From the NCBI GenBank assembly GCA_965249045.1, contig OZ252213.1, positions 9,329 through 73,328 on the forward strand: DNA of 64,000 nucleotides. The letters are read 5' to 3'. The number at the start of each line of letters is the position of its first letter. The first letter of the stretch is position 1. This stretch comes from Thermodesulfobacteriota bacterium (GTDB taxonomy: Bacteria; Desulfobacterota_D; UBA1144; Nemesobacterales; Nemesobacteraceae). The notes below the pieces were generated by a model that was not told the DNA's origin, made no database searches, and saw only the letters and a program-made list of their open reading frames with translations. Below, one piece after another: positions 5,946 to 14,174 of the stretch. The position numbers and the translations under genes were made by a program.

Positions 5946-6170
5946 TACTGAAAAAAACCCTCCGGAGGAAAGAAAAAGGATGCTTGTGAGATAAATCGGT
6001 TAATGAGATATTTTACACGAATAAATCCACGGATTCCAGAGCCAAACACAGACTTTGTCAGCAAATTATCCAAGCTCCGAAGGGAGCCACGAAAAGGCGC
6101 AATAGCCTGCCAACTTCAACAGATGGAATTCGTGCTATAATTGTAAAAAAAGACTTGGGATTAATTCAAA

Positions 6171-6947
6171 ATGCATAGATATTGCAAGCTGATGCTCATA
6201 TCGGTTGTTTTGCTTGTCGCCTGTTCCGACCAGACCTCGAACCAGATCGTTGAATGTGAAGGCTCGATAGCACCGTGCACTTTTGAAGAGATAATACTCA
6301 GAATGCTGCGCAGGAAGCCATCCACCCCTCTAGAGGTTGCTCCATTTACCATCGACCTCATAAAAGAAAAATACGGAGTTGAGGAGATAGGCTGTTCCCA
6401 CCCGCTTTTAAGCGATAACTCAGAATTCATCAGGATAAGAGACCTTTCCACAGATCCGGACACAAAGATATGGTATTCCCGCGAAGAACTCGAAGAATAT
6501 GGCACCGAAACCGTCTGGGAGTGCGATAACGGTGAGAGCTTTACGGAATACGTGAAGGGAATTCCCAGATCAACATCCGAGTTCCTAGTTATAGATCAAA
6601 CCGCAGAATATGGAATAGTTGAAGGTACAGTAACGGATCCTGAAGTACTTAAGCAGCTTGAAACCCTGTGGGAAAACTGCGAAGTCGGAACCGAACCGCC
6701 TAACTTTACAGGCGTTTTTACGAGTGGTACAGGCTTCCTTCCCCCGGAAGATCAAACATTTTGCGTAACGCTCGACATACTGCCCGGAGCGAAGCAGTGT
6801 TTCGCTAAGACTACTCCCCCAGAGTCTATCGAATATTCAAGCCATAACGGAGAAATTAGCCGAGAGTCGATACAAGTTTCTGAATCAGATTACTGTCGTC
6901 TTAAGGGGAACACGGATAGCCAAGCGCGAAGGGTAAAAATATTCTGA
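6171..6947 (+). CDS. Hypothetical lipoprotein
   Basis: Signal peptide with lipobox (LLVAC|S). No recognisable domain. TATAAT at 6136-6141 upstream. Confidence 0.55.
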   Translation: MHRYCKLMLISVVLLVACSDQTSNQIVECEGSIAPCTFEEIILRMLRRKPSTPLEVAPFTIDLIKEKYGVEEIGCSHPLLSDNSEFIRIRDLSTDPDTKIWYSREELEEYGTETVWECDNGESFTEYVKGIPRSTSEFLVIDQTAEYGIVEGTVTDPEVLKQLETLWENCEVGTEPPNFTGVFTSGTGFLPPEDQTFCVTLDILPGAKQCFAKTTPPESIEYSSHNGEISRESIQVSESDYCRLKGNTDSQARRVKIF

Positions 6948-7031
6948 TATCCGTGCTGACGCTGGAAAATTGCGAATATGAATTGCAAATGCGGAGCGAA
7001 TCCAATTTTGCCGACGGAGCGGCGTAATCGA

Positions 7032-7040
7032 CATGCGCGT
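7032..7040. repeat. Target-site duplication (left copy) CATGCGCGT
   Basis: Identical 9-mer at 8579-8587 directly abuts the other IS end. Confidence 0.8.
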
Positions 7041-7068
7041 GAGTTATAACTAAATCTGGTGTTCAGAG
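7041..7068. repeat. IS left terminal inverted repeat
   Basis: GAGTTATAACTAAATCTGGTGTTCAGAG matches the reverse complement of 8551-8578 (GAGATATATGCAAATCTGGTGTTCAAGG). Confidence 0.8.
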
Positions 7069-7146
7069 TGATTTGAAAAAAAGCGGCGTATCCGGTTGAT
7101 TTGTTGTTTGAGTTCAAAAAAACAACCAATAGGAGGATACGCCACT

Positions 7147-8544
7147 ATGGGCAAGAAGGATAAAGTTTTTGACCTCAAAGGTCAAAAAGAGACAATCGAT
7201 TCATTGAACGGACTGTTCAGCAAATTTGTCCACTCAGAAAGACGGAGAGCGGTTGCCGAAGAATTGAAGCTTGACGGACACATGGGAAACGGGCTTCAAG
7301 GCCCCGGGGCGGTTGCTGACCCCCTCAGCGAGATGTTGAGAGAGGGCGCCCGGTTTCTTCTCGGCACAGCCGTGCGGTGCGAGCTCGAAGAGTTCCTCAA
7401 GCAATACGAGGATCGTCTTCTGGACAATGGGAGAGTCGCGGTTGTGCGCAACGGATACCTGCCCGAGCGGGAGATACAGACCGGCATTGGTCCCGTGAAG
7501 GTACGAGTTCCCAAGGTGAGGTCCAAGGACGGGGAACCCGTCACTTTCCACTCGGTATTGGTGCCTCCCTATGTGCGCAAGGCCGCGACGCTTGAGGCGG
7601 CTTTGCCTTGGCTGTATCTGAAGGGAGTATCCACCGGGGAGATGGGGCCTGCGCTAGAGGCGCTGATCGGGCCTGAGGCCAGGGGGCTTTCGCAAAGCAC
7701 GGTGTCGCGGCTCAAAAAACAGTGGGCCGAGCAATACGGTACCTGGAGGACCGGGGATTTGAGCGAGGGTCGCTGGGTGTATATATGGGTAGACGGCATA
7801 TACAGCAACATACGAGGAGATAACCCTCGGTTGTGCGTGCTGGTGGTCATAGGGGTAAACGAACGTGGGGAGAAGCACTTCCTGGCTATCGAAGACGGTG
7901 TGCGAGAATCAAAGCAGAGCTGGCGTGAGGTATTGGTGAATCTCAAAGGGCGTGGGATGAAGGAAGCCCCGAAGCTTGCTGTTGGAGATGGAGCGCTTGG
8001 GTTTTGGCCCGCTCTTGAAGAGGTTTACGGAGAAACCCGTCAGCAGCGCTGCTGGGTGCACAAAACAATGAACGTACTCAACTACCTGCCCAAGTCCTCC
8101 CAGCCGAAGGCCAGGAGGCAGCTGCATGATATCTGGCAGGCGGAGACAAAGGAAGACGCGGAGAGGGCCTTTGATCTGTTCTTGAAGACATATGAAGACA
8201 AGTACCCGAGAGCGGCACAGTGCCTTGTGAAGGACAGGGAGGAGTTGCTGGCGTTTTACGACTTTCCCGCCAACCACTGGCGGAGCATTCGGACAACGAA
8301 CCCGATTGAGTCGGCCTTCGGCACAATACGGCATCGGACCAGACGCTGCAAAGGCTGTCTGAGTTCCGAGGGCATGTTGCACATGATATTCAAGCTGGGA
8401 ATGTGCGCGGAGAAGAACTGGCGCAAAATTAACGGGTTTGATTTCCTGGCGAAAGTGATAACGGGAGTGAAGTTCAGAGATGGGATCGAAGAGACAACAG
8501 AGAAAACAGCGGAGGTGACGACAGACGATCAGGTCGCCGCTTGA
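7147..8544 (+). CDS. IS256-family (mutator-type) transposase
   Basis: Signature motifs WVYIWVDGIY, CWVHKTMNVL and YDFPANHWRSIRTTNPIESAFG. ATG at 7147 follows AGGAGG (7130-7135); the longer TTG-initiated ORF from 7096 is less likely. Confidence 0.9.
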   Translation: MGKKDKVFDLKGQKETIDSLNGLFSKFVHSERRRAVAEELKLDGHMGNGLQGPGAVADPLSEMLREGARFLLGTAVRCELEEFLKQYEDRLLDNGRVAVVRNGYLPEREIQTGIGPVKVRVPKVRSKDGEPVTFHSVLVPPYVRKAATLEAALPWLYLKGVSTGEMGPALEALIGPEARGLSQSTVSRLKKQWAEQYGTWRTGDLSEGRWVYIWVDGIYSNIRGDNPRLCVLVVIGVNERGEKHFLAIEDGVRESKQSWREVLVNLKGRGMKEAPKLAVGDGALGFWPALEEVYGETRQQRCWVHKTMNVLNYLPKSSQPKARRQLHDIWQAETKEDAERAFDLFLKTYEDKYPRAAQCLVKDREELLAFYDFPANHWRSIRTTNPIESAFGTIRHRTRRCKGCLSSEGMLHMIFKLGMCAEKNWRKINGFDFLAKVITGVKFRDGIEETTEKTAEVTTDDQVAA

Positions 8545-8550
8545 TCATGT

Positions 8551-8578
8551 CCTTGAACACCAGATTTGCATATATCTC
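8551..8578. repeat. IS right terminal inverted repeat
   Basis: See left IR. Confidence 0.8.
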
Positions 8579-8587
8579 CATGCGCGT
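8579..8587. repeat. Target-site duplication (right copy) CATGCGCGT, containing the rsmD ATG
   Basis: Identical to 7032-7040. Confidence 0.8.
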
Positions 8588-9128
8588 ACTTACAGGACAA
8601 TCCAAGGGAAAAAGACTGAAGGTTCCGCGGGGGAAATCGCTTAGACCTACTGCGGCCAGAATAAAAAAGTCCATTTTCGACATACTGGGTCCCGAAGTAC
8701 AGCAGACAAGGGTGCTTGACCTGTTCTCGGGCTCGGGAAATCTGGGAATCGAGGCTTTAAGCCTAGGCGCCGAGTCCTGCGTGTTCGTTGAGAAAAACCC
8801 CGCCACGGCTGGGATAATTGCCCAGAACCTGCGTTCCTGCGGGTACACTGAACAATCAAGGGTACTCAATTTTGATTTCAGAAAAGCATTGAGTATGTTA
8901 AGTGCGGAAAATCGTGGGTTCGATCTTGTCTTCATTGATCCCCCATATGAGTTTTACGAAAAAACCGAACCGCACGCGCTTGCACGCGAGATACGAAGCG
9001 TCGTCGGGGAGAAAGGAATCATGATCATTGAACATCCGTCCGGAGACGTCATGAAATCTGAAGGATTTGACGTGAGGACCAGAAAATACGGAGGCACCTC
9101 CGTAAGTTTTCTAAGGAGGCTAGATTGA
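8580..9128 (+). CDS. rsmD: 16S rRNA (guanine966-N2)-methyltransferase RsmD
   Basis: MRVLTGQSKGKRLKVPRG...RPT..R.KKSIFDIL... with SAM motif LDLFSGSGNLGIEALS and DPPY catalytic motif. Start set at the ATG at 8580, inside the duplicated target site. Confidence 0.85.
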   Translation: MRVLTGQSKGKRLKVPRGKSLRPTAARIKKSIFDILGPEVQQTRVLDLFSGSGNLGIEALSLGAESCVFVEKNPATAGIIAQNLRSCGYTEQSRVLNFDFRKALSMLSAENRGFDLVFIDPPYEFYEKTEPHALAREIRSVVGEKGIMIIEHPSGDVMKSEGFDVRTRKYGGTSVSFLRRLD

Positions 9129-9628
9129 ACGGCAAAACGGTAATCTATCCGGGTTCCTTTGACCCTTTCACGAACGGGCACCTGAACATAATCGCCCGGG
9201 CTGCGGGCATCTTCGAGAAAATCATAATCTCGGTTGGACACAACACTTCTAAGGAAACGACGCTTTCAACCGAAGAAAGAGTGTCTCTCATCGCCGAGGT
9301 GACCAAGGATTACCCCAACGTTGAGGTTGAAAGCTTCGACGGACTGCTGGTCGACTACATAAGAAAGAAGGAAACCAATACCATATTGCGCGGAATGAGA
9401 TGCCATTCTGACTTTGAATACGAACTTCAGATGGCCACCGCAAACAAGCTTATGAACAAAGAGGTGGAGACGTTGTTTATGGTGACCGAAAGCCAGTTCT
9501 CTCACATAAGCTCATCTCTCATAAAGGAAATAATTTCCCTGGGAGGTTCAGCAGAGGGTTTCGTGCCGGCGGTGATTGAGGAAAAACTAATCGAGAAACT
9601 CCGCCCGGCAGAAAAGCGGAGGAAATGA
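9125..9628 (+). CDS. coaD: Phosphopantetheine adenylyltransferase
   Basis: (M)NGKTVIYPGSFDPFTNGH...ISSSLIKEI: T/HxGH nucleotidyltransferase motif. TTG start 5 nt after AGGAGG. Overlaps the rsmD stop. Confidence 0.9.
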   Translation: MNGKTVIYPGSFDPFTNGHLNIIARAAGIFEKIIISVGHNTSKETTLSTEERVSLIAEVTKDYPNVEVESFDGLLVDYIRKKETNTILRGMRCHSDFEYELQMATANKLMNKEVETLFMVTESQFSHISSSLIKEIISLGGSAEGFVPAVIEEKLIEKLRPAEKRRK

Positions 9629-9632
9629 TAGA

Positions 9633-10826
9633 ATGAGACTTTCAGAAAGGGTCAGCAACCTAAAACCGTCAGCCACGCTTACGATAACGGCAAAAGCGAA
9701 GTCTCTTCGCGCTCAGGGAGTCGATATCATAGGGTTCGGAGCCGGAGAACCCGACTTCGACACTCCCGAGCACGTGAAAAAAGAGGGCGTAGCCGCGATT
9801 AAAAGCGGCTTTACGAAATATACCGCCGTGGGTGGAATCGATGAACTCAAAGACGCGATAGCGGCGTCTTTGAAAAAAGATCACGGCATTGAGTACTCAA
9901 GGGATGAAATACTGGTTTCCTGCGGAGCGAAACACTCGACATACAACATTACTCAGGCGCTTTTCGAACCTGGAGACGAAGTCATAATTCCCGCCCCCTA
10001 CTGGGTTTCCTATCCCGAACAAGTGGCACTAACAGGCGCAACCCCGGTAATCATAGACACAGACGAGCAAGGACTTTTCAAGATCACCCCGAAGCAGCTT
10101 GAAGCGGAAATAAATGAACGGACACGCGCCCTTATTCTCAACTATCCTTCAAATCCCACGGGAACCACGTATTCGCGGGGGGAGCTTGAGGAAATAGTCA
10201 AAGTCGCCCTTGATGCCGGTCTGATCATAATCTCAGATGAGATATACGAAAAAATAATCTATGGAGAAACTGAGCACGTATCAGTTTGCTCTCTTGGCGA
10301 CAAAGCGAAAAAATCTACCATCCTCGTAAACGGAGTATCTAAATCCTACTCAATGACCGGGTGGCGTATAGGATACGCGGCGGGAGATAAACGAGTGATA
10401 AGCGCGATGGCGAAGCTTCAGGGCCAGTCAACCTCAAACCCTTCGTCGATCTCGCAGATGGCCGCCATTGAGGCGCTTTGCGGACCGCAGGATCTGCTTA
10501 ACAAAAGGGCAGGGGAATTTGAGAGAAGGAAAAATTTCATAGTAAGAAGGCTAAATGAAATCCCGGGATTTACGTGCTTTGACCCCATGGGAGCGTTCTA
10601 CGTGTTTCCGAGCATAAGTGGTTTCGTTGGAAAAATATACGGAGACAAGAAGATTGACGGATCTGTTTCCTTTACCGAATTCTTGCTTGAAGAAGCGAAA
10701 GTGGCCGTCGTGCCGGGTATAGCCTTTGGAAAGGAAAACCATCTCAGGATATCTTACGCGACATCCATGGAGAACATAGAAGAGGGCCTGAACAGAGTCG
10801 AAGAGGCGGTAAAAACCCTGCTCTGA
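9633..10826 (+). CDS. Aspartate/aromatic aminotransferase (class I, PLP-dependent)
   Basis: 397 aa with fold-type I aminotransferase pattern and a candidate PLP-lysine region (SKSYSMTGWRIGY). GGAGGA RBS at 9618-9623. Confidence 0.85.
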   Translation: MRLSERVSNLKPSATLTITAKAKSLRAQGVDIIGFGAGEPDFDTPEHVKKEGVAAIKSGFTKYTAVGGIDELKDAIAASLKKDHGIEYSRDEILVSCGAKHSTYNITQALFEPGDEVIIPAPYWVSYPEQVALTGATPVIIDTDEQGLFKITPKQLEAEINERTRALILNYPSNPTGTTYSRGELEEIVKVALDAGLIIISDEIYEKIIYGETEHVSVCSLGDKAKKSTILVNGVSKSYSMTGWRIGYAAGDKRVISAMAKLQGQSTSNPSSISQMAAIEALCGPQDLLNKRAGEFERRKNFIVRRLNEIPGFTCFDPMGAFYVFPSISGFVGKIYGDKKIDGSVSFTEFLLEEAKVAVVPGIAFGKENHLRISYATSMENIEEGLNRVEEAVKTLL

Positions 10827-11302: not shown

Positions 11303-12039
11303 TCTGCTAAAATAACAGGTTTTGAGCGTGCCCGCAAAAATCCACCCGACAATGAAAAACCAACCCCTATAAATAAGCTCCCGAACTACTTTCAGCGGTT
11401 TTCCAGAGCATTGTTTAGCGGAAACCAGGATTTACGACCAGTTGTTTTTGAAACTCTTGCCGCATAGACGTTGTGATTATCCCTAAGCTTGTCTTTGTGA
11501 GGGATAATCTGTACCATTTTTATGTTGAGGTGAGGGGGTATGGGCAGGGAACTCTGTCAACTTTTATAGTTTAAGAGTTCATTTTGCCCAATTTGAAAGA
11601 TGACTTTGCCACATTCCCATCTCTCGTAATCCCCCGTCGTTATTGAGTATTTCCGGTGAAATCGAGCTGACCGAGGCCCAAAATGCGGTTAGCGATTTTC
11701 AAGCGGTCGTGATATTAAATTGCCCGGAAAATCAGAGGAAACCCCCGAAAAAATACAATAATAGCAAGGGATTAAGCAAAAATAACACGAGCGCTATATA
11801 ATCGCTAGTTTTGTTTTAAAGGGACATCTTCCGTGTTTGGGTTGAAAAGGGACAGACACACAAAAAAGGCAAGCAATGCAAGGAGTTATAAAGGGACACA
11901 AAAACTATCAAGAACTCCTCAAGTCGGTTTTGAAAGGTTTTAAAGAGACATTCTAGGTAGTTTTCAAAAATTAAGCTGGTTACTTAGTTTTCTTTTCGGG
12001 TAACCGTGTTAGAATGGTCGGCGATAGAGGTGTAGGATT

Positions 12040-12435
12040 ATGAAGATTGAGATATTAGCTGGGGACTGGAAGCTTGCGGCTGTCAATGAAGGGGTGTTGA
12101 GGATGGTAGATTCAGGGGGGAAAGTAAAGCGGTTTACGGAAATAAAAAGCTTGGAAGTTGCAACAGAGGAAGCCAAGCGGGAATGGAAAAAGAAGATAGG
12201 TTGGGGAATTGGTGTTGGCTTGGTAACGTTCGGAGTTGGGGGGCTTGTAACGGCGTTGCTAGTTGGTAATAAAAAGTTTGTGGAATTCTTTTGTGAGTTA
12301 CCCGATGGCAAGGGGGAATTTATGGGGAAAACAGAGCGGAAAGGGTATCTGGAGCTAATGGAACTTTACCCCGAAACTGCAGGGAGCTCCGCGACAACTG
12401 CCGGCAAGGGGAAAAAGCCGGTTTGGGAAAAATAA
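12040..12435 (+). CDS. Hypothetical protein with one central TM segment
   Basis: Good SD (GAGGTG, 7 nt spacing). Hydrophobic Gly-zipper-like segment IGWGIGVGLVTFGVGGLVTALLVG. No family recognised. Confidence 0.45.
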   Translation: MKIEILAGDWKLAAVNEGVLRMVDSGGKVKRFTEIKSLEVATEEAKREWKKKIGWGIGVGLVTFGVGGLVTALLVGNKKFVEFFCELPDGKGEFMGKTERKGYLELMELYPETAGSSATTAGKGKKPVWEK

Positions 12436-12696
12436 AAGAGGCAGAGACCTTACGACAATAGCTCGACAATAATTAGCGCGAGAGCAATAGGACCTGCAAT
12501 ATACCACTTCATCATCTCTATGCTCTTTTTCATGCCTGCCACATTGTAAGTGAGAGAACGAAGACTCTCTGTGAGGTCGGATATTGACATCACCTCCCTG
12601 TCAAGCACGGCTTCTATATCTTCCCCGTCGAGCGAAGTCTTCCCCTGATATGGGCCGGAATAGATTTTTTGTACAACTTTCCTTTATAATTTCCCA

Positions 12697-13815: not shown

Positions 13816-13819
13816 GGGG

Positions 13820-13895
<76 letters not shown>

Positions 13896-13959
13896 GCGCA
13901 AAACAGGAGTATAAATCTAGTTTCAAGGCAAGTGTATGTCAAACCCGAAAGAAATTCGG

Positions 13960-14036
<77 letters not shown>

Positions 14037-14055
14037 ACAAAAAACAAGAGTACCT

Positions 14056-14083
14056 AGTCTATTTCAGGAAACATGACTGTCAA
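14056..14083 (-). promoter_or_regulatory. Putative sigma70 promoter of the tRNA-Ala pair
   Basis: On the minus strand: TTGACA, 16 nt spacer, TAGACT, ending 19 nt before the tRNA 5' end. Confidence 0.35.
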
Positions 14084-14174
14084 ACCCTCCGCGCCGAAAC
14101 AGCGCTTCCACTGTATTGTGGAACGGATTATGTATAATTCCCTTTTTATGCGTTAAAAGAAAGGAGATTGCCGG

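Follow-up and report, generated by a model that had tools for sequence, protein, structure and literature searches.

A recent IS256-family insertion on the rsmD start codon of a Candidatus Dadabacteria lineage, with the rsmD-coaD operon most likely still read through the element

What becomes of a housekeeping operon when a mobile element lands on the start codon of its first gene? We investigated this question in a 64,000-nucleotide stretch of contig OZ252213.1 (assembly GCA_965249045.1), hereafter the window, in which a 1538-bp insertion sequence (IS) of the IS256 family occupies positions 7041-8578 of the forward strand, directly before the ATG of rsmD. The interrupted operon consists of rsmD, coaD and, probably as its third gene, a class I/II aminotransferase gene, all read in the same direction. 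In Escherichia coli, coaD is essential. The locus is a natural experiment on how an operon of housekeeping genes, one of them essential, withstands 1.5 kb of inserted DNA at the first of its start codons. The best explanation of the whole, which we consider likely, is that an IS256-family element recently transposed onto the rsmD start and that the operon is still read through it.

The boundaries of the element could be placed to the nucleotide. A preliminary description of this DNA had proposed a 9-bp target duplication containing the rsmD ATG and imperfect terminal inverted repeats of 28 bp, and both were recovered. The duplication, CATGCGCGT, is perfect and spans the start codon; its left copy (7032-7040) bears an orphan rsmD ATG and its right copy (8579-8587) the functional one (8580-8582). 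The terminal repeats (7041-7068 and 8551-8578) match at 22 of 28 positions by eye, and a repeat search returned the outermost 25 nt (7041-7065 and 8554-8578) as 84% complementary (21/25). We further identified 15 copies of the element on long-read metagenome contigs, all of which align exactly from position 1 to 1538 at 99.5-99.7% identity, and found perfect 9-bp duplications at approximately 10 independent insertion sites, while one further site has 8 bp and another has no duplication. Because 15 copies share these exact ends and some 10 sites carry 9-bp duplications, the IS boundaries are not a product of chance. Three more distant relatives of the element (L070, L071 and L073) are likewise flanked by 9-bp duplications.

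The assignment to the IS256 family rests on the transposase and on the layout of the element. The transposase gene (7147-8544, forward strand, 465 aa) is preceded at 10 nt by a Shine-Dalgarno (SD) sequence, AGGAGG (7131-7136), and its product matches Pfam PF00872 (Transposase_mut) at 5e-67 and the NCBIfam equivalog NF033543 (IS256 family transposase) with 321.7 bits against a cut-off of 150. Its residues D216, D281, E388 and C302/H305 align with D175, D241, E348 and C262/H265 of the ISCth4 transposase TnpA (PDB 6xg8), so that the CxxH motif of the alpha-helical insertion domain is kept as C302-x-x-H305. Members of the family have inverted repeats of approximately 20-40 bp, a length of approximately 1.2-1.5 kb and target duplications of 8-9 bp; here we found a single transposase open reading frame (ORF), an Asp-Asp-Glu (DDE) triad with a C/DxxH motif, imperfect inverted repeats and an 8-9 bp duplication. 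These findings support the earlier claim of an intact IS256-family element. A subterminal TGTAAA motif is common in IS256-family repeats, though not strictly defining (PMC7780238); at bp 9-14 of our element the right end reads TGCAAA (5/6 matches) and the left end ACTAAA (4/6), a degenerate version at a similar position. NCBI lists widespread homologues with approximately 70% identity under the name IS256 family transposase, and the cluster of the transposase at 90% identity holds 38 members. An exact search with the left-end 28-mer gave no match in 185,579 GTDB species-representative genomes and none in JGI metagenome contigs, and the wider distribution of the element is therefore known from protein homologues.

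The insertion belongs to one lineage of a Candidatus Dadabacteria species. A circular contig of 1,848,232 bp (ENA ERZ25766727, ctg362170_233x_c) matches the window at 100% identity, and the RsmD relatives among GTDB species representatives come from closed metagenome-assembled genomes (MAGs) of 1.5-2.4 Mb; sponge metagenomes have yielded MAGs of this group (e.g. PMC12648040). To date the insertion, we compared the window with its closest relatives. The empty site predicted from the duplication, AATCGACATGCGCGTACTT, occurs verbatim in nine loci whose flanks are 98.7-99.9% identical to the window, and the 182-aa RsmD is identical between the window and these empty-site genomes. In a co-resident strain from the same sample (ctg362153_27x_c), the rsmD site is empty and the IS lies elsewhere. 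Adaptive changes in the rsmD copy of the IS were considered and rejected: no substitution is private to it, and all 16 copies agree in both non-coding ends. The chromosome of the window itself carries at least four copies, among them the one at rsmD and those of loci L015, L020 and L021. The notion that the element is instead old and fixed at this locus, or an assembly artefact, is refuted by the exact empty sites in nine loci of near-identical genomes, and the perfect 9-bp duplication, the lack of private substitutions and the presence of the same filled allele on two independent contigs of more than 1 Mb all stand against it as well; we give it practically no credence. The insertion at rsmD is a recent, strain-specific transposition, as the preliminary description had suspected from the clean duplication, and in this population the element is active, with multiple copies. 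The lineage with the filled allele is viable, since two contigs of more than 1 Mb carry this allele and one of the two has 233x coverage.

The other insertion sites place the rsmD event in context. When the IS was removed in silico from the ten other sites, five proved to interrupt ORFs of 136-991 aa, mostly in accessory or defence-type neighbourhoods, and two were intergenic; we saw no obvious target consensus among the insertion sites. The rsmD event is one insertion that happened to preserve the ORF. Around many of these copies (L017-L019, L022, L023 and L025) we observed defence- or accessory-type genes, for example for an OLD-like TOPRIM protein, ThsB-TIR, a PIN protein, a large AAA ATPase and restriction-modification methyltransferases that are interrupted or abutted by the IS. 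In one locus (L024, 1735-4820), an IS copy is nested within another IS copy with a 9-bp duplication, ATTGTCCAG. The copy shared by loci L021 and L026 (2895-4432) is the one that lacks a target duplication, which suggests a later rearrangement, either an IS-mediated deletion or recombination between copies.

How much of rsmD did the insertion leave in place? The gene (8580-9128, forward strand) encodes a 182-aa product whose sequence identifies it as RsmD, the 16S rRNA m2G966 methyltransferase: it matches the TIGR00095 equivalog (144.6 bits, cut-off 117.5), carries the S-adenosylmethionine-binding motif DLFSGSG (DxFxGxG) and the motif IDPPY (DPPY), and is matched by the solved RsmD structures 2fhp, 2ift and 2fpo. 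The Pfam profile PF03602 matches from its position 1 at residue 1 of the product, so the ATG within the duplication is the canonical rsmD start, and the start MR[VI]LTG was seen in 24 of 24 Dadabacteria species representatives. The earlier claim that rsmD is intact thus holds, its product being the same as in the empty-site genomes. The element transposed into the 9-bp target spanning the start codon, and because this target was duplicated in the process, an intact ATG and ORF adjoin the right end of the IS, with the native leader left behind 1.5 kb upstream.

This leader (6948-7031, forward strand) is a conserved feature of the locus. Its last 45 nt or so (approximately 6987-7031) are conserved, immediately ahead of the rsmD ATG, across some 23 species of Dadabacteria (23-26 upstream regions aligned; L029-L052), with the consensus cGGAGcAAATCCgG...cGGcaTAATCgAC-ATG and a conserved motif GGAGCAAATCCGG ... 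CATAATCGAC, and this holds in three upstream layouts: next to a divergent gyrA, behind the cassette that contains ORF258, or behind a mere remnant of that cassette. The IS parts rsmD from this conserved leader, in agreement with the claim that the gene was severed from its native upstream region. The accompanying claim, that the leader holds a GGAG at the right spacing, is doubtful: the GGAG (7016-7019) lies 13 nt from the ATG, compared to 5-10 nt for the clear SD sequences of three neighbouring genes, and it was found only in the closest species rather than across Dadabacteria. In its native setting, rsmD is therefore probably translated without help from a canonical SD. We also considered the leader as a structured RNA, since visual inspection hinted at co-variation between the two arms of a small hairpin, but dropped the idea when RNAalifold returned no consensus structure of the approximately 45-nt leader across 23 species and Rfam no match there. 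No sigma-70 -35/-10 pair fits the leader. A leaderless rsmD mRNA started from a conserved CATAAT box (-10 to -5) was rejected, as only 4 nt separate this box from the start codon; its form in the window species, CGTAAT, lacks the key A at position 2.

Upstream of the leader, between gyrA and rsmD, lies ORF258 (6171-6947, forward strand), which encodes a lipoprotein-like protein of 258 aa with the lipobox LVAC and gave no match in Pfam or NCBIfam. Its cassette varies between strains and species, and is absent in one related locus (L011, 5369-5456) and in many species. Several species (among L032, L035, L036, L040, L043 and L049) keep only approximately the first 25 nt of the cassette (ATGCATAAATACTGCAA...) fused to the rsmD leader, and the cassette region (6048-6990) has short direct repeats resembling ATTGCAA at either end.

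How, then, may the operon be expressed from the filled allele? The preliminary description held that transcription of rsmD and coaD now necessarily depends on a promoter within the IS. This does not follow, as a co-oriented IS free of terminators lets upstream promoters read through it. The IS is indeed co-oriented with the rsmD-coaD-aminotransferase operon, and a terminator scan predicted no forward-strand terminator inside 7041-8578 or between ORF258 and the insertion. For these reasons we judge it most likely that the operon is still transcribed by read-through across the IS, with transcripts that would start at the transposase promoter, in the native leader or at the promoter of ORF258.

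For coaD, a transcript is probably all that is needed, because the gene has an SD of its own. It encodes a phosphopantetheine adenylyltransferase of 167 aa (9125-9628, forward strand) from a TTG start that overlaps the rsmD stop codon (TTGA), with AGGAGG at 9114-9119, 5 nt before the start, and would be translated from this site on any transcript that reaches it. The product matches the TIGR01510 equivalog (189.6 bits, cut-off 103.3), and carries FTNGH, the nucleotidyltransferase T/HxGH motif, together with ISSSLIKE. The aminotransferase gene (9633-10826, forward strand) begins 4 nt past the coaD stop and has a GGAGG of its own.

Such a transcript could in principle arise downstream of the insertion altogether. 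If coaD and the aminotransferase gene were expressed from a promoter inside rsmD, the insertion would be irrelevant to the essential gene and rsmD itself would be largely silenced. A candidate site exists at 8788-8818 on the forward strand (TTGAGA, a 19-nt spacer and the extended -10-like TGgGATAAT), approximately 310 nt upstream of coaD, and loss of RsmD is tolerated in E. coli, where rRNA methyltransferase knockouts, rsmD included, are viable (PMC3439901, PMC7056703). The site is nevertheless a consensus match from a relaxed scan that a standard promoter scan does not list, and its 19-nt spacer is suboptimal. In addition, its TG is present only in the window species and two others (L029 and L030), and what conservation remains is explained by the conserved VEKNP...GII codons around it. 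We regard expression from this site as rather unlikely, and return to read-through across the IS.

On a read-through transcript, RsmD would probably be produced in lower or otherwise changed amounts, and either of two routes could yield it. The first would use the native ATG at 8580, which now lies behind the AU-rich IS end without an SD. The predicted energy for opening the start region is 5.2 kcal/mol for 8580 in the filled allele, compared to 8.4 kcal/mol in the native allele and 7.6 kcal/mol for an ATG at 8547, and the 8580 start is thus predicted to be at least as accessible in the filled allele as in the native one. The second route would be termination-reinitiation. The transposase ends at TGA 8542-8544 within TTGATCATG (8541-8549, forward strand), where the stop overlaps a TTG (8541) in frame with rsmD and is followed 2 nt on by the in-frame ATG at 8547. 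Reinitiation there would add an 11-residue N-terminal extension, with the predicted junction MSLNTRFAYISMR in place of the native start MRVLTGQSK. The gene caller picked this ATG, giving a 193-aa RsmD; the solved RsmD proteins of E. coli and Haemophilus influenzae have 8-13 extra N-terminal residues relative to the window RsmD, so an extension of 11 residues would fall within the natural length range. As noted before, the longest ORF across the junction opens at TTG 8541 (195 aa) in frame with rsmD. The gap from the transposase stop to the rsmD ATG at 8580 measures 35 nt rather than the 36 nt given earlier.

We asked whether ATG 8547 and its open outward frame might be a designed feature of the IS, and rejected this: the codon is AAG in one relative (L068) and TTG in two others (L072 and L073), which makes the frame a coincidence. 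In two further relatives (L070 and L071), a 1-nt indel shifts the frame relative to the IS end.

Taken to its limit, the second route would make the housekeeping operon dependent on the element: transposase, rsmD, coaD and the aminotransferase gene would form one transcript from the transposase promoter, RsmD would be extended (MSLNTRFAYIS-MRV...) through TGAtcATG reinitiation, and coaD would be coupled to transposase expression. If true, this IS copy would be stabilised and the cell forced to keep the transposase transcribed. We consider this arrangement improbable, and favour read-through of the operon from any of the three upstream starts named above.

An outward promoter at the right end of the IS would free the operon from upstream transcription altogether. 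On the circular intermediate of IS256-family elements, a promoter is assembled from a -35 box contributed by the right end and a -10 box contributed by the left, and the right-end -35 can also make hybrid promoters with flanking DNA (PMC7780238, PMC9330008). Our element carries both boxes. The right terminal repeat (8551-8578, forward strand) holds an outward -35-like TTTGCA at 8565-8570, 8 nt from the right end, and the left terminal repeat (7041-7068, forward strand) holds a -10-like TATAAC at 7045-7050, 4 nt from the left end; on geometry alone, a circle junction of 5-6 bp would space the two by 17-18 bp, as on the circular copy-out/paste-in intermediate of the family. Both boxes recur in relatives with 72-88% transposase identity, as TTTGCA, TTTGCT or TTGACT on the right and as TATAAC, TATATT or TATAGT on the left. 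The earlier suggestion of outward promoter elements in the IS end thus stands for the conserved -35-like box and fails for its partner, since the rsmD flank offers no usable -10.

It is this missing partner that decides against a hybrid promoter at the right junction, which would combine the outward -35 with a -10 in the rsmD flank and drive the operon independently of upstream transcription. The conserved TTTGCA at 8 nt from the end speaks for such a promoter, and hybrids created by IS256 are documented (PMC9330008, citing Maki & Murakami 1997; PMC7780238). However, the hexamers 15-19 nt downstream of the box (GTACTT, TACTTA, ACTTAC, CTTACA and TTACAG) all lack the A2/T6 signature of a -10, and transcription starting approximately 7 nt past such a -10 would begin at about 8595-8600, beyond the rsmD ATG, where it could serve coaD and not RsmD. 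Because no -10-like hexamer is found and the start would fall past the ATG, we rejected this candidate as quite unlikely.

Several points weigh against read-through expression of the operon as we propose it. Sigma-70 consensus scans, applied here to a Dadabacteria host, did not locate the promoters for the transposase, the leader or ORF258. Neither ATG 8547 nor ATG 8580 has an SD. Expression of coaD from this locus would be obligatory if the 1.85-Mb chromosome has no second coaD or other phosphopantetheine adenylyltransferase. Finally, a transposase that goes untranslated in transcripts entering from outside could invite Rho-dependent polarity that stops them before rsmD. A possible basis for such a loss of translation is a 12-nt stem (7082-7093/7135-7146, forward strand, 11/12 pairs), found as an inverted repeat and in the minimum free energy (MFE) fold, which pairs the non-coding left part of the IS with the SD and start region of the transposase gene and overlaps the SD in transcripts entering from outside the IS. 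Relatives with 72-88% transposase identity keep its arms and differ in the loop, and the stem resembles the structures of IS10 and IS50 that provide protection from outside transcription. Strong sequestration of the SD was rejected, as the stem is present in the MFE fold yet changes local ensemble accessibility only approximately 2.4-fold, which limits its possible part in any polarity. Next to this stem, within transposase codons 1-14, we observed a perfect 10-bp palindrome with a 3-nt loop, TTTTTGACCTTTGAGGTCAAAAA (7166-7188), which overlaps the only sigma-70-like matches of the IS, one on each strand.

The rsmD insertion is not the only strain variation in and around the window. This strain has a stretch of approximately 1.1 kb (11565-12674) that most related strains lack; four iteron-like 15-nt repeats, GTTTTAAAGGGACAT, lie at 11813-11951, followed by a 131-aa ORF at 12040-12435. 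The periplasmic-binding-protein gene beside this stretch is called at 372 aa here and at 408 aa in other strains. More generally, the region downstream of rsmD-coaD-aminotransferase varies strongly between strains (L002/L009, 8058-12500; L006, 9563-10708; L012, 3785-4954), and in some of them it contains rve-type integrase or IS genes, an IS1595 fragment, an S24 peptidase repressor and a DNA methyltransferase. On the reverse strand, 13823-13895 and 13963-14036 are two tRNA genes, nearly identical, in tandem and 140 nt apart; they account for what a BLAST comparison had presented as a tandem repeat of approximately 130 nt (13818-14087).

Overall, our findings document, to the base, IS activity at the strain level in a phylum without cultured members, with filled and empty alleles and approximately 10 known sites, and show that small Dadabacteria genomes (1.5-2.4 Mb) host an actively expanding IS256-family element. 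They reveal no new kind of element or mechanism, as upstream IS insertions, read-through expression and outward -35 boxes are all well established, and the rsmD insertion is a clean but ordinary case of IS activity.

With IS256 of Staphylococcus and Enterococcus and ISCth4 of Clostridium thermocellum, the element shares a single Mutator-type DDE transposase with a CxxH motif in the insertion domain, a length of approximately 1.5 kb, imperfect inverted repeats of approximately 25-30 bp and target duplications of 8-9 bp, and, like IS256-family elements in general, it has a -35-like box facing outward at its right end and a -10-like box at its left. It differs in several respects: ISCth4 TnpA is a distant match (phmmer E = 8e-29), the transposase has approximately 50 extra N-terminal residues relative to 415-aa homologues of approximately 70% identity, the TGTAAA motif of the family is degenerate, and the host is a Dadabacteria MAG. 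The nearest parallel is the activation or rewiring of llm, mecA, walKR and rot by IS256 in staphylococci. Unlike in those cases, the flank here holds no -10 to match the outward -35, the target is the housekeeping rsmD-coaD operon rather than a resistance or virulence locus, and the insertion, known here from sequence alone, sits on the start codon itself. As in those cases, the IS lies directly upstream of a host operon, is co-oriented with it and carries an outward -35 at its right end.

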